A DNA stretch of 32,000 nucleotides from Haloquadratum walsbyi C23 (GTDB lineage: Archaea > Halobacteriota > Halobacteria > Halobacteriales > Haloferacaceae): NCBI RefSeq assembly GCF_000237865.1, contig NC_017459.1, positions 1,230,001 to 1,262,000 on the forward strand. Reading direction: 5' to 3'. The notes under the pieces were generated by a model that had not been told where the DNA came from, searched no databases, and was given only the letters and a program-made list of their open reading frames with translations. Below are positions 3,554 through 29,930 of the stretch, one piece after another (within the stretch, counting starts at the first letter, position 1; each line of letters opens with the position of its first letter). A program made the position numbers and the translations under genes.

Positions 3554-3997
3554 TAGTCTCTCTCATTACCTTGAGACGACTTATTTATCAATTATATTAG
3601 GCATTTGATGACATAACGGATAGACAGCGTGAACTCACAGATTGATATTGAGTCCCAGAGCAATGAATTCATCAAGGCTTGATCAATATCGAAACAACCC
3701 TCTCTTTATGAACATCATATAATGTGTGCACAGACTAATTACGGAATCTCAAGAAGAAAGCTTCGCGCTTTGTTGTGGGGAAATCCGACATGAGGGACGC
3801 CACCCGCGAAGTATTAATTTGCGTGATAGCACATTCAGTCGTAAGTACATCAGACGAAGATTAGAGTTGATTTGAGGTCTCCAGTATCACAAAGCAATCC
3901 TGCGTCGGATAACCACTCACCCTCGTGGGTGAGTCGGATCGATGGCAGTGTCTGTGAGATCCAAACGGATACCCAGCCCCAAGCATGTCACGCCTCG

Positions 3998-4063
3998 CCT
4001 CGAGCGAGACCCGATATAGTGAACTCACCTCGAGCGAGACCCGATGTAGTGAACTCACCTCGG
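3998..4063. repeat. Tandem 30-bp repeat, 2.2 copies: cctcgagcgagacccgatRtagtgaactca. Member of a dispersed GTGAACTCAC repeat family.
   Basis: 3998-4027 and 4028-4057 differ at one position (a/g). A third partial unit, cctcgggg, starts at 4058. Related copies lie at about 3620-3638, 7838-7868 and 25193-25270. Confidence 0.85.
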
Positions 4064-4244
4064 GGTAGTTGCCTTGACCGCCTGTATACAAATCATAACT
4101 GAGATGCCGATGGTCTCGGCCAGGGTCCTGTCGAGGATGCACAACCAGCGTGCTGCTCCACGAGGGAAGCCTCGTGATTCAATCCGGTGAGAATATCAAA
4201 GCTGTCACAGAAGGCATATCAGACTACATTTCTTATATTCATGC

Positions 4245-7927: not shown

Positions 7928-9520
7928 ATGAAACAATCCGGACGGCGCCAAAGGATGGCGATATTGACCATTGTTGTCCTACTTTTGCTGACAGTGTTTG
8001 CCAGTGGCGTCGCGATTGGGGTTCCTGCTGCGCGAGTTGCAGTGTCTGATGCGACAGTGACACCTGCAACACCAACAGCAGGAGCTCCAACGACGGTCAC
8101 TGCAACGGTCCGATTGTCAGGTGGGAGTACCTCTGCTGTAACACTTGATCGTGTTGACCTTGTTAGTTCAGATGATGACAACTTCCGTGACGATGTAGTG
8201 GCTCGTGCGACTGACCTTGGGTCACTCTCAGCTGGTGAGACACTAACAGTTCCAATCACAGCAACATTCGATACGCCAGGTGAGCATGATCTCCGAATCA
8301 GAGCGACTGTTACTGATGCTGACAATGACGAAACGACAGTCACGCGACCAATTTCTGTTATTGTTGAACAGGGTGTTCCGCAGGTCTCATTTGATGCACC
8401 AAATGCTGTTGTGGGAGCAGATTCATCTGTGCAGGCAACGGTATCAAATCCAACAAATGCTGCCTTACGCAATCTATCGGTGCGTATTATGACACCTGAG
8501 ACAGGTGAGCGCAGTGTTCGTGAAATCCCAGTCTTAGCTGCTGGAACGACAACAACGTTGAACCTTTCAGTTCAACCCCGGCAACCTGGACAACAGCAAC
8601 TAACTGCTGATATCTCATATCTAACACCTTCGGGGACGGTCCAAACCGTAGATGAAACGGAATTGATGCGCGTGAAACCATTGGCGAATGACGTTGGTGT
8701 TCGCGTTAGTCGTTCCACAGGAAATGATCAAAATAATGCAGGCGGAGTCGCAGGTGGGATTGGTGGGATTCTTGGTGGACAGAGCGATCTTCAAGCTGGT
8801 GGGTCACAGCAAGATGGGGCTGAACAGAGTGAAGTGGACGTGACTGTCTCAAACTTTGGAAACGCTCCGATTGATTCCGTTGTTGTCATTCCACAAACAG
8901 CTAATGGAACGATTGTCACGGAGATAGGGCGTGTGATTGTTGATGAGACATTGTCACCAGGAACTGCATCAACTGTCACTGTCGACACAGCCCAAGCCGA
9001 GCAGATTGGACAACTACAATTCGCTGCAGCATATGAACTTGCCGGTGAACGTCACACCGTGTCCGCGAAATTTAATCGACAGACTCCTGGTGCGGTTGAT
9101 CTCACTGGCGTGGATCTTTCGGTCAAATCAAATGGATCGGTTGATTTACGCAGTAATCTCGCCAATACTGGCGGCAGTGAGATTTCTGGTGTAGTTGTGC
9201 AAGTGGTAAGCAGCGAGTACGTTACACCCGAGTATCCAAGACGAAGTTACTTCGTTGGAACACTTGGTAGCAGTGAATTCGCACCGGTTGAATTAACTGC
9301 TTCAGTTGATGTGCAGAATGCAACAGAGGTTCCGGTTCGCATTCAATATACTGTCGGTGCTGACCGCGTTGTTGAGACGACTACGATCTCACTTCCCCCG
9401 AATGATGAAACAGATGGGACCACTCCAGGTGGAGGCGAAGTAGGTGTCATATTGAGTGTGCTCCTTGTTGGCGCAGTAATTGTGATTAGTGGTGTATTCA
9501 TTATGAGGCGTCGAGAATGA
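7928..9520 (+). CDS. Cell-surface protein with repeated CARDB / COG1361-like beta-sandwich domains, a Tat-type signal and a C-terminal TM anchor.
   Basis: 530 aa. N-terminus SGRRQRMAILTIVVLLLL. Four repeated segments (VTATVRLSGGSTSAVTL, VQATVSNPTNAALRNLSV, VDVTVSNFGNAPIDSVVV, LRSNLANTGGSEISGVVV). Gly-rich linker GGVAGGIGGILGG. C-terminal VGVILSVLLVGAVIVISGVFIMRRRE. Confidence 0.8.
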   Translation: MKQSGRRQRMAILTIVVLLLLTVFASGVAIGVPAARVAVSDATVTPATPTAGAPTTVTATVRLSGGSTSAVTLDRVDLVSSDDDNFRDDVVARATDLGSLSAGETLTVPITATFDTPGEHDLRIRATVTDADNDETTVTRPISVIVEQGVPQVSFDAPNAVVGADSSVQATVSNPTNAALRNLSVRIMTPETGERSVREIPVLAAGTTTTLNLSVQPRQPGQQQLTADISYLTPSGTVQTVDETELMRVKPLANDVGVRVSRSTGNDQNNAGGVAGGIGGILGGQSDLQAGGSQQDGAEQSEVDVTVSNFGNAPIDSVVVIPQTANGTIVTEIGRVIVDETLSPGTASTVTVDTAQAEQIGQLQFAAAYELAGERHTVSAKFNRQTPGAVDLTGVDLSVKSNGSVDLRSNLANTGGSEISGVVVQVVSSEYVTPEYPRRSYFVGTLGSSEFAPVELTASVDVQNATEVPVRIQYTVGADRVVETTTISLPPNDETDGTTPGGGEVGVILSVLLVGAVIVISGVFIMRRRE

Positions 9521-17047: not shown

Positions 17048-17283
17048 AATAGATGGTCAGCCCTGTTCATAATGAGTTCTATGGCATCTATTTCTATCCA
17101 GTGAGTCATCTCCAATTTATATTTAAGTTTGATCATGGATATGTGAGTTTTATCACCCCCGTACAAGATAACCGTCAAATAAACTAAAACGTGAATCCGT
17201 CCGGCGATCTATTGTTGATGGATAAACCGTGTATCACTATGCATATCAAAATATAAACACAAAGCAAGCATATACTGCATGTG

Positions 17284-17628
17284 ATGTTAGAATTAGCAAA
17301 TGAAGCGTGTGAGGCATGTACCTCAGAAGATGAACCGCTTGTTGAGAGCGAATATGCAGAGTATCATACTGAACTCAGAGGTGATGTTTGGGAGGTCGTT
17401 GATGATCATCATCTTGAGGCAACATATAATTTTGAGGACTTTCGTGATGCACTTGAGTTCACATATGAAATTGGTGAACTCGCTGAGGAAGAATGGCATC
17501 ATCCAGATATCTCCCTCGAATGGGGGGAAGTAAATATTGAAATGTGGACACACAAAATCGACGGACTGCATAAGACGGACTTTGTGATGGCCGCACGCAT
17601 GGACCGTATCCACAAACAGTACGCCTAG
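17284..17628 (+). CDS. Pterin-4-alpha-carbinolamine dehydratase (PCD/DCoH family).
   Basis: [32 protein letters not shown] matches the PCD signature (E..HHP......V.......H). ATG at 17284 follows a GTG at 17281. Confidence 0.85.
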
Positions 17629-17994
17629 ATAAAAACGAGCAATCGACAGTGCGGAATCGATGCCAAAGGAAAATCACGTAATACTGAGTCTGTCAGTCTT
17701 ACGTATCAAATAGTTGTATAATCAATAATTATCAATCACTCACTATAAGCTAAGCCTCTGACATTCATCATAGACACTGTCGTGTGGATACAACGGATAA
17801 TTGATAAAATATTATTCTTATTCGATATTGCACAATCGCTTGCTAGCCGCTTCAGAATCATTTAATCAATTATCTGATGAACAGGCGCAATCCCACGCAG
17901 ACCGTGGATACGCGCCATCACTTGGGAATCTATCCACGTGATGTGACCACGCTAAGATGTGAACGCTCACAGTGAACTATGTAGGAAACACACT

Positions 17995-18310
17995 AAAAAC
18001 AGAGCGATTCCCCGCGCAGTCCTGCGATGGCGACCTGCCCGCCCACGGTACCCAAGCGATTATCGGAACCAGTCGATACCCAGCGTATTCTCATAGAAAC
18101 TGACTGGAGTTGACTACTGGAAGCAGACACGCAGTAACTCCGAGTCCGCTGATGTTGACTCGACTCTCGCCGGGCAACACCAGCTCCGAGGGTCGGTGGG
18201 ACTGCACCCTGCAATCTCCAACACTCCCACGGAGGAAACCGCGCCGTTCACAGCGCGGAGGATGTCATGCTCTAGAATCCAGAGAAACCCAGTAAGTGAT
18301 CTTACCACAA
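17995..18310 (-). ncRNA. Candidate structured non-coding RNA of unknown class. Strand is tentative.
   Basis: About 58% GC by my hand count over 18001-18300, against about 30% in 17701-17760. No protein-like ORF. Dense hairpins:
- 18148-18184, a 10-bp stem capped by GGC-GAGA-GUC when read on the minus strand;
- 18106-18141;
- 18239-18258;
- 18292-18305.
The two G:U pairs in the 18148-18184 helix exist only on the minus strand. On the minus strand there is a T5 run at 17995-17999 and an AT-rich TATA-like box at about 18321-18333. Confidence 0.4.
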
Positions 18311-18349
18311 TTCACTCTATTGAAATACATAAACAATACATACATAACA

Positions 18350-20584
18350 TCATGACTGTGGCGGGACATTCTGTCCAAGTAGTGATGGAGTCTTGAGCAC
18401 TGCCACTGTCTCAACGTTAACAGTAACAATATCTTCAGATGGTGTTGTATCCACGCTGATATCATTACCAGTAAACTGGTCTGTCGTATCAACAACTGCC
18501 CGAAGGTCCACGTATCGGGACTCTTCAGCGAAATTAATGATAATTACTCGCTTCGGCTCATTCATCCCCGCGTTTCGAGCGAAGACAAGCACGTCCGTGG
18601 GTGTCTCACTCCGGTGAGCGACTCGGGTGAGTTTTGATTTCACCCCAAACACTGGTGAGTCGTGATACAGCGCGATAAGACGCTGATAGAAGGCAAAGTG
18701 CTCTGTAGGAAGTGTCGACCAGTTTATGAACGCTCGCTTATATGGATCTGACTCGATATCATCGCTTTGGGTCGGGTCGTCCGGATATGCAGCCTCTCGA
18801 CGCTGACCATGCTTAGTGATCAATCGCTCCTGCCCATAATATACCATTGGAATCCCCGGAAGCATGACTGCTGCTGCCATTGCCGCTCGCTGGATTTTCT
18901 CTGCAGCGGGTCGTTGAGCAAGCATCGCCTGATAGGTTAATCGAGCTTCATCATGGTTCTCCGTCGCATTGAGTAAGTGAGTATGTTGTGGGAATCCATC
19001 GTTTCTGCGGGCTGCAATATCGGCGAGGAGATCTGTTGGTGACCGTTTCCCCTGTGCGATTGCATGCACAGATCGCATGAATCCTGACGTATCAAAATGA
19101 CAATCGAACTCCGAGGCGGCAAAGCGAGCCTTGCGCGGGATTGCTTCATCAAGCAGGAAAAACTCAGAATTCTGTGCCCGAACTCGCTCACGAACCTCTA
19201 CCCAAAAACTGTGCGGTACTCCCCATGCAATATCACACCGAAATCCATCAACCCGCCGAGCCCAGAATTCGATGCTAGCGAGGATATGTTCCCGAAGCGC
19301 AACATTACCAAAATTAAGATTTGGCTGATATCTCACATCAAAGAAACTTGTCTGTGCAGGGGCAGCATCGTGTTTATTCCCTCTTTGCTGGCGGTCAAAC
19401 CAATCAAAATACTTTGAGTTGGTATTCCAGGATGTAATATCCGGAAAGGTGCTGATATCATCTGAATCCGAATCAGTATCTAACTTAGCAACAGTGTCCT
19501 GAAAAAACGTATGCGGCCATCCACAGTGATTAATGACAAGATCAAAACAGACGCGAATATCATGATCATGACATTCCTCAACAAATGTTTCAAATTCCGC
19601 CAGCGTACCTAAATCATCAGCAATATCAAAATAATTGGTTGCGCTATACCCATGTGGTCCGCCTGGAGCACGGTCCACGGTTGGGCTCCATGCGGGAACA
19701 ATTGGGGTCAGCCATACAACATCAATACCTAAAGAGCTCAGATATGATACTCGTTTACTCAGCGTTTCAAATGTGGTTTCACCGGGGGTCCCTGCAAATG
19801 AACGAGTGAAAATCTCATATATTACGGCATTGTCGAGCCAATCAGGTGGACGATTTGGGAGTGAAACTGTCTTTGTTTCAGGGTCAAGACATATTTGATC
19901 CCGCACACCGACACACTGACCATCGAAAGGGGCAGCATACACATTTGTTGGAGAACTTAGTGCCGTAATTGGAATCTGTGCTTTTGTTTCAGTTATATTG
20001 ATATCCTCAGCATCAAGCTCACTCGCATCGTGTGGGAGAAACTCAACGATAAGATCTGAGTCACGTGCCTCACTATTGGGTGCAAGTGCCGGATGTGACT
20101 CAATTACAAATGATTCTATCTCTGCATCATAATACCCATCAAGACTAATACGTGGGGGAGAAGCATTATCCGCTATATCATCCGCTTTTTGATGCTTACC
20201 TGGACTGTCGAATACATGGATCGTCAATTCATGTGTCGTATCAGGAGCTTTCAATTCAATTGTATACGTTCCTGGTTCATCTGGATTGAACTCAGCGGTG
20301 TTGTGTAATCCATGGTCGTAACGCTCTCGATGGTCGTATGGGCTCAATGCATGCTCAATTGTGGCTGTACTCTGTGGTGGTCGAGTAATGACACGCCAGC
20401 TAAACGCATCCGAATCATAGTTTTCAGGATCTTTATTCGGCTGACCTGATATTGTCGGAGCAAGATTATCACGATCGAATCCATGTTCCGTATCAACAAA
20501 TATTGGATCGACAATACAATCACTGCAGGAAAGAAAACGAGGTGGTCCAGGATGATGACCCCCATGAGGCGTCTGACCCGACAT
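18350..20584 (-). CDS. Alpha-amylase family glycoside hydrolase (GH13) with an N-terminal extension of about 270 aa.
   Basis: GH13 conserved regions: DVVWLTPIV, DGFRCDIAWGVP (nucleophile Asp), FFLLDEAIP (acid/base Glu), ATENHDEARL (NHD). No signal peptide. Confidence 0.88.
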   Translation of the reverse strand: MSGQTPHGGHHPGPPRFLSCSDCIVDPIFVDTEHGFDRDNLAPTISGQPNKDPENYDSDAFSWRVITRPPQSTATIEHALSPYDHRERYDHGLHNTAEFNPDEPGTYTIELKAPDTTHELTIHVFDSPGKHQKADDIADNASPPRISLDGYYDAEIESFVIESHPALAPNSEARDSDLIVEFLPHDASELDAEDINITETKAQIPITALSSPTNVYAAPFDGQCVGVRDQICLDPETKTVSLPNRPPDWLDNAVIYEIFTRSFAGTPGETTFETLSKRVSYLSSLGIDVVWLTPIVPAWSPTVDRAPGGPHGYSATNYFDIADDLGTLAEFETFVEECHDHDIRVCFDLVINHCGWPHTFFQDTVAKLDTDSDSDDISTFPDITSWNTNSKYFDWFDRQQRGNKHDAAPAQTSFFDVRYQPNLNFGNVALREHILASIEFWARRVDGFRCDIAWGVPHSFWVEVRERVRAQNSEFFLLDEAIPRKARFAASEFDCHFDTSGFMRSVHAIAQGKRSPTDLLADIAARRNDGFPQHTHLLNATENHDEARLTYQAMLAQRPAAEKIQRAAMAAAVMLPGIPMVYYGQERLITKHGQRREAAYPDDPTQSDDIESDPYKRAFINWSTLPTEHFAFYQRLIALYHDSPVFGVKSKLTRVAHRSETPTDVLVFARNAGMNEPKRVIIINFAEESRYVDLRAVVDTTDQFTGNDISVDTTPSEDIVTVNVETVAVLKTPSLLGQNVPPQS

Positions 20585-20713
20585 TACTCATTCACCAGGG
20601 TGAGAAAACGCTTGATACTTTGGAATCAGAGTTTGGCTTTATGACTTGGATAGTAATTTCACTTTTATGATCTCTGTTGCCTATCCATTATTATAGAATA
20701 CAAGCGCGGGAGG

Positions 20714-20947
20714 ATGTCAATCAATGGCTATCGAGAGGCTGAGACGGTTCATCGAATCGTCGAGCATACACATATACATGAGATATATACATGTGATAGT
20801 CATGTGCGGGACTATCTCTCAACTCTCAATTGTGATTACTTCGAGTCTTTAGCACCGTGGCGATCCATATCAATGACTGGAGTCGCTGAAAATGCACCTT
20901 CCGGCACCGTCAATGGAACTATTCGCCTTAATCAGTATCAATTGTGA
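20714..20947 (+). CDS. Hypothetical 77-aa protein (weak call).
   Basis: ATG at 20714 is preceded by gggagg, with an attata box about 25 nt upstream. No recognisable motif. The last 10 nt overlap the convergent xseB end. Confidence 0.25.
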   Translation: MSINGYREAETVHRIVEHTHIHEIYTCDSHVRDYLSTLNCDYFESLAPWRSISMTGVAENAPSGTVNGTIRLNQYQL

Positions 20948-25192: not shown

Positions 25193-25270
25193 GTCTGCGT
25201 CGTGAACTCACCCCTGGGGCAGTCGCCTTGACCGCCTGTACAATTATCCTTGATGTCGGGTCATGAGCGA
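25193..25270. repeat. Dispersed copy of the GTGAACTCAC repeat family.
   Basis: gtgaactcacccctggggcagtcgccttgaccgcctgtacaa (25202-25243) aligns with gtgaactcacctcggggtagttgccttgaccgcctgtatacaa (4049-4091) at roughly 85-90% identity. Weaker similarity continues for about 25 nt on each side. It lies about 50 nt upstream of the RNase Z start. Confidence 0.75.
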
Positions 25271-29531: not shown

Positions 29532-29930
29532 TCACCGTTTGGTCAGTTGAATCCCGTAAACACCCGCGGGGGTTTCAGTATTCATTCGAGTCTCAATCCA
29601 TCGTTTTGCGTCGGTGTCGGTGTCAGTGTCGGTGTCAGTGTCGGTGTCAGTGTCGATGTCGGTGTCGGTGTCGGTGTCAGTGTCGGTGTCAGTGTCGGTA
29701 TCGGTCTCTATTTTTATTTGTAATCCATTCACCCTCAACTGGACTGTTGCCTGTGTGGCGATTCGCTCAGTATATTCATTAACCATGTCGGCTTTCTCAA
29801 CATCAAATGAGTCGACTGCCGCATCGCCACAATCGAGTATCTGTTGGACAGCACTTCGGATGATTCCCTCTGGTTGATCTGTTTGTGCGCTATCAAAATC
29901 AATAATGCAGTAAAACGTCATCGAATCCAT
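29532..29930 (-). CDS. Small acidic protein with an internal (Thr-Asp)16 repeat linker.
   Basis: 132-aa ORF: a 75-aa N-terminal domain, then (TD)8-ID-(TD)7, then a 26-aa basic tail (AKRWIETRMNTETPAGVYGIQLTKR). Track ORFs 29460..29723 and 29614..29877 on the plus strand, (VG/VS)n, are antisense shadows of the repeat. Confidence 0.6.
   Translation of the reverse strand: MDSMTFYCIIDFDSAQTDQPEGIIRSAVQQILDCGDAAVDSFDVEKADMVNEYTERIATQATVQLRVNGLQIKIETDTDTDTDTDTDTDTDIDTDTDTDTDTDTDTDAKRWIETRMNTETPAGVYGIQLTKR
29610..29705. repeat. Hexanucleotide microsatellite, (gtcRgt)16, inside the CDS.
   Basis: Sixteen consecutive hexamers: gtcggt, gtcagt, one gtcgat and one atcggt. gtcggt and gtcagt units alternate in places. 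They encode TD dipeptides on the minus strand. Confidence 0.95.

Follow-up and report, generated by a model that had tools for sequence, protein, structure and literature searches.

The GC-rich, hairpin-dense island at 17995-18310 of the window (the whole stretch of DNA analysed, 32,000 nucleotides) is very probably a degenerate, transposase-free element of the IS200/IS605 family, an HqIRS56-type PATE that lies on the plus strand at 17875-18267, after the pentamer TTATC. HqIRS56 PATEs and PATE biology have been described in Haloquadratum walsbyi (Dyall-Smith et al. 2011; PMC3119063), and the island adds one more copy to this known family of mobile elements; it is no new RNA gene. The original prediction had offered two choices, a divergent known RNA or an undescribed one. 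The first is the correct choice, in that the stems come from a structured-RNA scaffold, and the second gives way to a copy of the known family. The parts of the element and its surroundings are:

17870-17874, plus strand: target or TAM-like pentamer TTATC, directly 5' of the element (TTATA in relatives)
17875-18267, plus strand: whole element, an internally deleted HqIRS56-type PATE of 393 nt, delimited by nhmmer profile and flank breakpoints
17893-17907, plus strand: left-end (LE) subterminal palindrome CCACG-cagac-CGTGG, shortened, aligning to the LE hairpin CCACGGCCTTCAGGCCGTGG
17981-18131, plus strand: PATE-specific conserved 5' domain, from conserved blocks in alignment A1; helices 1-7 covary
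18132-18267, plus strand: truncated homolog of the omega-RNA (sotRNA) scaffold, from cAGTAACTCCGAGTC to the right end
18195-18196, plus strand: deletion junction within the short repeat GGGTCGG, from the nhmmer alignment and the mafft --add gap
18239-18258, plus strand: right-end (RE) subterminal hairpin, the 'RE-like tetraloop' CCGCGCCG-UUCA-CAGCGCGG, a motif of sotRNAs, HgcC and PATEs
18257-18267, plus strand: terminal oligonucleotide GGAGGATGTCA, the right boundary, invariant in relatives
18268-18287, plus strand: flank TGCTCTAGAATCCAGAGAAA, the would-be guide if transcribed as omega-RNA; ordinary GH13 3'-flank DNA
20691-20720, plus strand: second, 'terminal-only' mini-PATE, TTATA followed by GAATACAAGCGCGGGAGGATGTCAA, with an exact GGAGGATGTCA match, on the other side of GH13

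The compositional signal was confirmed by measurement. The GC content of 17995-18310, estimated earlier at about 58%, is 56.6%, compared with 45.5% for the whole 32-kb window and 33-40% for the flanks (35.0% at 17629-17874 and 33.3% at 18269-18349), and GC this high is reached by only 0.25% of the 316-nt windows in the 32 kb. As proposed, the island is non-coding and holds only short, overlapping, basic ORFs of 28-73 aa on both strands. Short basic ORFs are atypical for haloarchaeal proteins. The neighbouring GH13 ORF (744 aa, minus strand) terminates with the stop codon 18350-18352, which leaves about 40 nt to the island edge at 18310, as had been noted; a 100%-identical cluster representative exists for this ORF. 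All four hairpins of the original prediction fold as claimed when energies are computed for the plus and minus strands, respectively: -15.3 and -20.2 kcal/mol for 18148-18184 (z -3.3 and -5.4), -8.9 and -12.1 kcal/mol for 18106-18141, -10.4 and -13.9 kcal/mol for 18239-18258, and -2.5 and -2.0 kcal/mol for 18292-18305. Folding of the whole island against shuffled sequences gave z-scores of -2.17 (plus strand) and -0.79 (minus strand), a modest gain in stability. The island is not repeated within the window, where only the 11-16-nt right-end tail recurs, at 20704-20719. Its GC-richness and stems are inherited from a guide-RNA scaffold.

The extent of the element was determined with an nhmmer profile of 33 full-length relatives (509-524 nt, from many haloarchaeal genera), from which the window copy was excluded. 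The profile matched the window at 17882-18195 (HMM 7-347, E 9.3e-40) and at 18185-18267 (HMM 439-516, E 1.8e-7). Homology to the sister genome L005 stops at 17873/17874 and resumes at 18268, so that the element ends coincide with the homology breakpoints to within one or two bases, with no target duplication. A clean empty site was not found in L005, which has an unrelated 2165-nt segment between the same flanks. The limits first drawn for the island had missed about 120 nt on the left (start 17875) and overrun the element by 43 nt on the right (end 18267). In an alignment of about 40 copies with their flanks, TTATA is invariant before the left end, and the TTATC of the window copy differs from it by one base. 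The 5' 46 nt of the element are about 89% identical, with one 5-nt gap, by hand count, to the published HqIRS56 5' end (TTATA followed by TGCTGAGCAGG...). The LE hairpin CCACGGCCTTCAGGCCGTGG, found in L015, L047, L065, L067 and HqIRS56, is 5 nt shorter in the window copy. At the right end, seven of the eight stem positions pair, with one C·A mismatch, around a UUCA loop that is followed by GGAGGATGTCA; the next base is T in the window and A in relatives. The published 3' ends of HqIRS54, HqIRS56, ISHwa21, ISHwa24 and ISNph18 all finish in GGATGTCAA. Subterminal palindromes are present at both element ends (17893-17907 and 18239-18258), and the termini, TGATGAAC... and ...GGATGTCA, contain no terminal inverted repeats.

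This organization is that of the HqIRS56-type PATEs (PMC3119063), which are likewise transposase-free, with subterminal palindromes at both ends and no terminal inverted repeats. They too have a TTAT(A) target on the 5' side, a 5' end of the form TGnTGAnCAGGCGCAAT..CCACG...CGTGGATACGCGCC.TCA and a 3' terminal GGATGTCA, and they are intergenic, prone to core deletions and accompanied by terminal-only mini copies nearby. The window copy differs from HqIRS56 in its length (393 nt versus 532-574 nt in PMC3119063, with relatives measured at 509-524 nt), in its two internal deletions, in its TTATC target and in its right end. The right-end 45 nt are of the ISH12/pNG300 subtype (GGAGGAAACCGCGCCGTTCAC...), unlike the HqIRS56 consensus (GGATTCCTCCGCGTTCACGCGG...), and the window copy may therefore be a chimera or a sister type within the HqIRS56-type group. 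A blastn search of plasmids and phages matched window 18223-18271, at 88-98% identity, with the right ends of ISH12/ISH1.8 and with others adjacent to TnpB genes, and it matched 17998-18226, at 70-74% identity, with intergenic elements of six genera that carry no annotation.

A conserved syntenic RNA gene was considered and rejected. Downstream of GH13 the island occurs neither in the 87%-identical relative (L005/L006) nor in H. walsbyi (L001-L004) or Haloquadratum sp. J07HQX50 (L007); because it is missing at the syntenic site in these three related Haloquadratum genomes, it does not represent such a gene. This comparison of homologous loci had been recommended in the original prediction. The flank at 18268-18287 is about 90% conserved in L005/L006, both of which are without the element, and the GH13 of the window is 81% identical to that of H. 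walsbyi, which marks the host as another Haloquadratum-like species.

The relatives form one family in the alignment, sharing TTATA, the LE hairpin, a conserved core, the RE hairpin and GGATGTCAA, with unrelated flanks. The family is about 515 nt long throughout, with both ends present and no ORF. Complete relatives consist of four parts: a left end with its subterminal hairpin, the PATE-specific 5' domain, an omega-RNA-like scaffold of about 230 nt, and the RE hairpin with GGAGGATGTCA(A). The 5' domain contains the conserved blocks GTAGGAAnCA...GAGCGATTCC...GATGGCGG...ATCGGAACCAGTC. Analysis by RNAalifold and pair counting over a scaffold of about 390 nt revealed strong covariation among full-length relatives: 97.2% of cells are paired, compared with 32-44% in slid controls, and 22 pairs show changes on both sides, compared with 10.8±1.7 in shuffles (none of the 500 shuffles got as high as 22). 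Indel lengths do not follow multiples of three, and what is conserved is base-pairing rather than codons.

The element strand is plus, as indicated by all family matches, all IS landmarks and an excess of G:U over A:C cells (155 vs 30) in the plus-strand consensus structure of the 33 relatives. This reverses the minus-strand assignment made earlier, where the G:U argument was based on two or three transitions in one decayed copy. The earlier model, in which the minus strand carries a structured RNA gene of about 310 nt, undescribed or highly divergent, served by its own TATA-like promoter near 18330 and by a T5 terminator (17995-17999), is already largely refuted, and we consider it extremely improbable. 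It draws on the individual hairpins, which in the window copy are slightly more stable on the minus strand, and on the lack of any Rfam family at gathering score, but the whole-island minus fold is no better than shuffles and the G:U excess of the family lies on the plus strand. The T5 run exists, as A5 on the plus strand at 17995-17999, but it sits inside the element and is not conserved: relatives have GGGAAC there, with GGGAA at the position of the run. Similarly, there is an AT-rich stretch at about 18320-18335, but this is flanking DNA conserved in the sister genome without the island and no feature of the element. The proposed ends match no conservation boundary, since the family reaches 120 nt further left and ends 43 nt earlier on the right, and the island is missing from the three syntenic sites described above. 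The 7S-like length of about 310 nt is a coincidence: deletions have shortened an element whose usual length is about 515 nt.

Comparison with the profile revealed the extent of these deletions. Complete relatives measure 509-524 nt and the window copy 393 nt; about 110 nt are missing from it, at HMM 348-438 (about 91 positions) and at about 109-127. With the first of these deletions went the near-invariant GAGGATAGGAGTACCGGGGGCTTGGCACTCCCAGCAGTCCC core, the central GGCAC hairpin and the 3' half of the stem that opens the omega-RNA. Only 32 of the 80 consensus pairs are kept, compared with 74-80 in relatives; 39 of the remainder are lost to the gap and nine to mismatches. Given the loss of about 110 nt and of most pairs, the window copy is most likely an inert relic, judged by its structural damage.

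We searched Rfam, as had been suggested, and found no match at gathering thresholds in the whole window. At E<=10 over 17700-18600 the only match apart from obvious noise was HgcC; SRP RNA and RNase P RNA, including the archaeal models, were absent, in agreement with the earlier view that the island is neither. ARAGORN found no tRNA or tmRNA, and no att site at a tRNA. The HgcC match (24.9 bits, E 0.0017, 18151-18281 on the plus strand; gathering 50 bits) is carried by two 3' hairpins and the GGAGGAUGUCA tail. We attribute this weak match to the right-end tetraloop hairpin, a published haloarchaeal sotRNA motif; the RE-like tetraloop is common to sotRNAs, HgcC and PATEs (PMC4615843). HgcC RNAs (RF00062, Methanocaldococcus, Pyrococcus) resemble the window copy in having an RE-like tetraloop hairpin followed by a GGAGGA(G/U)GUCA tail, and in having drawn attention as a GC-rich island within a genome richer in AT. 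The likeness goes no further than the 3' hairpins and tail; the remaining scaffold is different, and so is the host clade.

The relationship to sotRNA, which is omega-RNA (PMC12558985), is seen most clearly in the intact relatives. The window copy does not match sot0042 (RF02656; gathering 88 bits) even at E<=10. Full-length relatives match model positions 1-174 with 25-50 bits (E 2e-10 to 4e-3), and the genuine TnpB genes in L071 (Haladaptatus) and L072 have sot0042 at their 3' ends with 95.2 and 80.6 bits. Full-length relatives show the sot0042 landmarks in unchanged order (AAGUAACUCCGAGUC ... GAUAGGAGUACCGG..UUGGCAC..CCAGCAGUC ... GCAAACCU.AA ... GGAUUCC), and GGAUUCC is followed by an 8-bp stem with a UUCA loop; the window copy retains the first and last landmark. 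Of the sotRNA features, the 8-bp right-end stem with its UUCA tetraloop is present as CCGCGCCG-UUCA-CAGCGCGG; the 5' stem ACUCCGAGUC / GAUAGGAGU has lost its 3' half to the deletion, which also took the central GGCAC hairpin. Unlike sot0042, the PATE family has no overlapping tnpB, two expanded variable stems and an extra 5' domain of about 150-200 nt, and the window copy is without the central third and gives no model score. The TnpB-encoding IS of L071/L072 and the PATEs are 80-92% identical at the left end and about 71% in the right-end/omega region. Between LE and omega region, blastn found no counterpart of the PATE-specific 5' domain in these two IS, and we found no description of this domain in Rfam or in a limited set of literature.

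The omega-RNA scaffold normally overlaps the 3' end of IS1341-type tnpB genes, and the PATE scaffold is homologous to it. This overlap raises a further reading, namely that the island is a decayed protein-coding gene, either a tnpB pseudogene fragment or a remnant of another GC-rich foreign gene. Haloquadratum tnpB pseudogenes are abundant (PMC3119063), and full-length PATEs give weak tblastn traces of the TnpB C-terminal tail (residues about 372-431) at E 0.003-0.1 in a tiny database. We nevertheless regard it as very unlikely. At 393 nt the element is too short for a transposase gene. No tnpB lies upstream of the element, though it ends at an IS right end, and tblastn with two haloarchaeal TnpBs detected no trace of TnpB in the island or the rest of the 32-kb window; Pfam (10 of 61 ORFs of at least 80 aa) likewise revealed neither TnpA nor TnpB in the 32 kb. 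The ORFs of the island are all short and basic, atypical of haloarchaeal proteins, and the uniform length of the family, its two ends, its lack of an ORF and its conservation of pairing across indels that break any reading frame all speak against a coding origin.

By comparison with other IS200/IS605 elements, an HqIRS56-type PATE would be moved as single-stranded DNA by TnpA (Y1/HUH) acting in trans and would insert 3' of a TTAT(A) motif. A plus-strand transcript crossing the right end would turn the flank into a guide, and TnpB in trans would cut the emptied site beside TTATA, the element being restored by recombination. For the window copy, the putative guide at 18268-18287 is suggested by the published TnpB mechanism. 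Many PATEs encode omega-RNAs used by TnpB in trans (bioRxiv 10.1101/2023.03.14.532601). The PATEs or omega-RNA-only elements of Geobacillus stearothermophilus IS200/IS605 (Meers et al. 2023) also consist of IS ends and an omega-RNA with no protein gene, and presumably depend on TnpA/TnpB in trans. They are bacterial, unrelated in sequence and were tested experimentally; the function of the haloarchaeal family is suggested by analogy.

The same transcript bears on whether the window copy is still active. Continued plus-strand transcription of the truncated element, with the product working as a small RNA, is unlikely. Such a product could be a PATE-derived sRNA like Halobacterium VNG_R0052, a minimal TnpB guide in trans, or an antisense RNA to the 3' end of the convergent GH13 mRNA, with which plus-strand read-through would overlap in antisense. 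PATE-derived and sotRNA transcripts are expressed in H. salinarum, where overexpression improved growth (PMC4615843), and the window copy keeps the right-end tetraloop, the terminal oligonucleotide and the 5' domain. The window copy is also 99.9% identical in two other metagenome contigs, but this reflects same-species sampling, not selection. Against activity are the absence of sot0042 even at E<=10 and the loss of 48 of the 80 consensus pairs, a loss that takes in the near-invariant core and the first omega-RNA stem, whose 3' half is gone. A broader and improbable proposal is that the intact PATE of about 515 nt, in which a PATE-specific, strongly covarying 5' domain of about 150-200 nt is joined to an omega-RNA scaffold and no nuclease gene is present, is a gene in its own right for an 'extended guide RNA' about 400 nt long, of which the window copy would be a minimised variant still in use; such an RNA might be a parasite of TnpB in trans or might be host-recruited.

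Read as the relic of a mobile element, the conspicuous GC island is accounted for, and a false candidate for a 'novel RNA' drops out. The case also carries a warning: where an archaeal genome leans towards AT, as in Haloquadratum, an island that is GC-rich and dense in hairpins is often an IS200/IS605 end, a PATE or an omega-RNA scaffold. The HgcC family itself reportedly arose in 2002 from the same GC-island signal. As a by-product, the analysis yielded a clean 34-sequence alignment (A1) of a PATE family that is widespread in haloarchaea, covaries strongly and has a 5' domain not in Rfam; it is of moderate interest to work on TnpB and omega-RNA. A genome scan with the core motif identified 54 loci, nearly all haloarchaeal, in about 30 genomes in all, with at least six in Natrinema gelatinilyticum and two in H. 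walsbyi J07HQW1; the published copy number for H. walsbyi is 19-23. These results suggest that guide-RNA-only elements are abundant and conserved in Halobacteria.

Two observations concern the neighbourhood of the element. The preceding gene encodes a Pterin_4a dehydratase, and a pterin-4a dehydratase also lies beside the right end of a Salinigranum TnpB IS; we judged this a coincidence because orientation and distance differ. The window contains one PATE copy plus the mini copy at 20691-20720. Core-deleted PATEs of about 52 bp have been described (PMC3119063), and the H. walsbyi counterpart of the mini copy, TTATC followed by GAAGACAAGGAGAATACCCGCATCTGCAGGCGCGGGAGGATGTCAA, abuts the GH13 stop.

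An island at 17995-18310 had been described as GC-rich and non-coding, and both properties held. The interval is 56.6% GC, against 35.0% (17629-17874) and 33.3% (18269-18349) in its flanks and a window mean of 45.5%, a value reached by just 0.25% of 316-nt windows across the 32 kb. Its only ORFs are basic, overlapping frames of 28-73 aa on both strands. The neighboring GH13 gene is a minus-strand ORF with its stop codon at 18350-18352, encoding a 744-aa alpha-amylase-family protein with 81% identity to the Haloquadratum walsbyi counterpart and 100% to a metagenome cluster, so the source is an uncultured Haloquadratum-like archaeon. Against shuffled sequence, the whole island shows only a modest gain in stability on the plus strand (z -2.17) and none on the minus (z -0.79). 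Nothing in the window reached an Rfam gathering threshold, and ARAGORN found no tRNA in it. The sole notable match in a permissive Rfam search was HgcC (RF00062; 18151-18281, plus strand, 24.9 bits, E 0.0017, against a gathering score of 50), which rests on two 3' hairpins and the single-stranded tail GGAGGAUGUCA.

Searching plasmid and phage records with blastn split the island into two parts. Positions 18223-18271 match many haloarchaeal replicons at 88-98% identity; within them, 18233-18267 are 94% identical to ISH12/ISH1.8 of phage phiH. In both Haloarcula marismortui pNG300 and Salinigranum, this sequence comes directly after the stop of a TnpB-type gene, which identifies the part as an IS200/IS605 (IS1341-type) right end (RE). 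The other part, 17998-18226, has 70-74% identity to unannotated intergenic stretches in Natrinema, Haloplanus, Natribaculum, Halomicrobium, Halostagnicola and Halorubrum. Alignment of the matched loci revealed one element family, with a TTATA target, a left-end hairpin, a long conserved core, the RE hairpin and GGAGGATGTCAA, in flanks wholly different from site to site. The 'RE-like tetraloop', a UUCA loop on a stem of 8 bp, occurs in IS1341-type tnpB sotRNAs (sense-overlapping transcripts), the HgcC family and intergenic PATE-derived RNAs (Gomes-Filho et al. 2015, PMC4615843). PATEs, transposase-free elements of this type, were catalogued in H. walsbyi by Dyall-Smith et al. 2011 (PMC3119063). 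Among them HqIRS56 is a 'homogeneous PATE' of 532-574 bp with 19-23 copies per genome, beginning TTATA followed by TGCTGAGCAGGCGCAATACCACGATCTTCAGGCCGTGGATACGCGCCGTCA and ending ...GGAGGAGGATGTCAA (PMC3119063). Against that 5' end, the window (17870-17920) reads TTATC, then TGATGAACAGGCGCAATCCCACG, a five-position gap and CAGACCGTGGATACGCGCCATCA. The PATE class, the HqIRS56 type, the sotRNA/omega-RNA and the RE-like tetraloop that HgcC also has are already known, and the window element is one more, decayed copy of a known kind, in a species related to H. walsbyi.

A core-motif scan (ATCGGAACCAGTC-N50-75-GTAACTCC, one genome per species) returned 54 loci in about 30 genomes, nearly all Halobacteria, including Natrinema, Halorubrum, Natronomonas, Haloquadratum, Salinarchaeum, Natronoarchaeum and Halapricum; a complete element measures 509-524 nt. 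An nhmmer profile of 33 complete relatives, excluding the window copy, matched the window at this locus only, aligning 17882-18195 to profile positions 7-347 (E 9.3e-40) and 18185-18267 to 439-516 (E 1.8e-7). From these extents, the window copy lacks profile positions 348-438 and about 109-127. Independently of the profile, homology to the sister genome (L005) extends to 17873, the TTAT, and restarts at 18268, right after GGAGGATGTCA. Together the profile matches and these breakpoints place the element at 17875-18267 on the plus strand (393 nt); its identity, boundaries and strand are directly established. The original prediction had missed the left 120 nt of the element and taken in 43 nt of ordinary GH13 3' flank. 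At the syntenic site the island is not conserved: it is absent downstream of GH13 in H. walsbyi (L001-L004), in the 87%-identical relative (L005/L006) and in Haloquadratum sp. J07HQX50. Two other contigs of the same species as the window carry the element at 99.9% identity. Where the 17874/18268 flanks enclose the 393-nt PATE, the corresponding flanks of L005 (3753/5919, reverse complement) enclose an unrelated 2165-nt segment carrying an HbpS-like gene along with one of 69 aa. The difference is a replacement at one and the same site, as in the 'deletion-coupled insertion' named in H. walsbyi. The start of that segment, ...CATTATGATGAACCC, resembles the PATE start, TTATCTGATGAAC.

The core of the family is homologous to omega-RNA. 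Full-length relatives covered the whole of Rfam sot0042 (RF02656) at 25-50 bits (E 2e-10 to 4e-3); two expanded stems keep them under the gathering score of 88. IS elements of Haladaptatus and Natrononativus each encode a 438-439-aa protein with Pfam OrfB_IS605 and Cas12f1-like_TNB domains, hence TnpB, with sot0042 at the tnpB 3' end (95.2 and 80.6 bits, respectively). These elements and the PATEs have in common the left end (80-92% identity) and the RE/omega region (~71%), but not the middle. sotRNAs are now considered TnpB omega-RNAs (PMC12558985), and PATEs frequently carry omega-RNAs on which TnpB operates in trans (bioRxiv 10.1101/2023.03.14.532601).

RNAalifold on the 34-sequence family alignment gave a consensus structure of 76-80 pairs, and conservation of the family at the RNA level was observed directly.

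Pairing in the 34-sequence PATE family alignment
Cells forming standard pairs: observed 97.2%; slid controls 32-44%
Pairs changed on both sides: observed 22; slid controls 4-10; shuffles 10.8±1.7 (0/500 reach 22)
Cells changed on both sides: observed 113; slid controls 7-16

On the plus strand, G:U cells outnumber A:C cells in this structure (155 versus 30), so selection acts on plus-strand RNA or top-strand single-stranded DNA. The case made for a minus-strand RNA had drawn on two or three transitions in the window copy alone, such as a C·A mismatch in its RE hairpin where the pNG300 stem is perfect. All four proposed hairpins (4/4) folded as described, but two of them do not characterize the family. 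The GGAGUU...AACUCC stem (18106-18141) lacks conservation, relatives instead pairing AGUAACUCC with a GGAGUAC that is deleted here, and the long hairpin at 18148-18184 is the form that a variable stem takes in this copy.

Of the 80 pairs in the family structure, 32 survive in the window copy and 74-80 in relatives; the deletion accounts for 39 of the losses and mismatches for 9. This damage is likewise a direct observation. Gone with the deletion are the near-invariant GAGGATAGGAGTACCGGGGGCTTGGCACTCCCAGCAGTCCC block, one covarying hairpin and the first omega-RNA stem's 3' half. The deletion junction lies within a short GGGTCGG repeat, in agreement with the repeat-mediated 'core deletions' of Haloquadratum PATEs (PMC3119063). 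Judging from established work on IS200/IS605 and TnpB, intact members would be excised and inserted as single strands by TnpA in trans, 3' of TTATA; their transcript would run just past the RE, with the flank serving as guide, and TnpB in trans could cut the vacated TTATA-flank junction, leading to reinstatement of the element. The window copy most likely performs none of excision/insertion, guiding or reinstatement, and it is improbable that it retains a residual sRNA or antisense role.

The PATE 5' domain (alignment columns 1-200, e.g. L014 1978-2140; window 17981-18131) is strongly conserved and covarying in the family, with the motifs GGAAUCAGG...GAGCGAUUCC, GAUGGCGGCCUGYCCGCC and AUCGGAACCAGUC and a covarying hairpin. 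It had no counterpart in the compared TnpB-encoding IS elements and no covering match in Rfam scans of four full copies. This covarying, PATE-specific domain may be under-described, as may the family's wide spread in Halobacteria, a lead that concerns the family rather than this locus.

The window has other IS200/IS605-type ends. The RE tail, as GCGCGGGAGGATGTCA, is repeated beyond GH13 at 20704-20719, and in H. walsbyi it lies directly against the GH13 stop. 'Terminal-only' mini-PATEs and further repeats are as follows.

20691-20720, plus strand: mini-PATE upstream of GH13, TTATA followed by GAATACAAGCGCGGGAGGATGTCAA
L001 (H. walsbyi) ~8239-8290, minus strand: mini-PATE, TTATC followed by GAAGACAAGGAGAATACCCGCATCTGCAGGCGCGGGAGGATGTCAA, its TCA being the complement of the GH13 stop codon
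~4049-4090 and 25201-25242, both minus strand: two copies of another IS605-type or PATE-like end, TACAGGCGGTCAAGGC(A/G)ACT(A/G)CCCC(-/A)G(A/G)GGTGAGTTCAC; the former locus also covers 3994-4053 (minus strand)
29586-29723: tandem 12-nt repeat, GTCGGTGTCAGT-like, at least 8 overlapping copies within overlapping ORFs

The mini-PATEs flank GH13, placing the gene between IS200/IS605-type ends in direct orientation. The two-copy end resembles the published HqIRS46/HqIRS71 termini ...GGTACTTCAC / GTAGTTCAC; its ~4049-4090 site also has tandem 30-nt partial repeats ending GAGGTGAGTTCAC and coincides with the window's second-highest GC peak (~3861-4100). The 29586-29723 repeat is probably a repetitive acidic Thr/Asp-type linker encoded on the minus strand.

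Among the relatives, one Halapricum copy (L047, ~600-650) has a ~47-nt insertion within the right-end hairpin loop, recalling the reported preference of SMR-A (small mobile repeats) for near-terminal PATE palindromes. In Salinigranum marinum (L073, 2501-2549) the right end of a TnpB IS directly adjoins a gene for pterin-4a-carbinolamine dehydratase. The window has a Pterin_4a gene at 17281-17628, 247 nt upstream of the PATE, but given the different orientation and distance the adjacency is probably a coincidence. A Halomicrobium urmianum plasmid has a near-threshold Guanidine-II riboswitch (mini-ykkC) match (L015, 3578-3631, minus strand; 31.6 bits, gathering 32). Haloarcula marismortui pNG300 carries a CRISPR array (L012, 4810-6023; Rfam CRISPR-DR24, 19 repeats) ~0.6 kb from two convergent TnpB-family genes.
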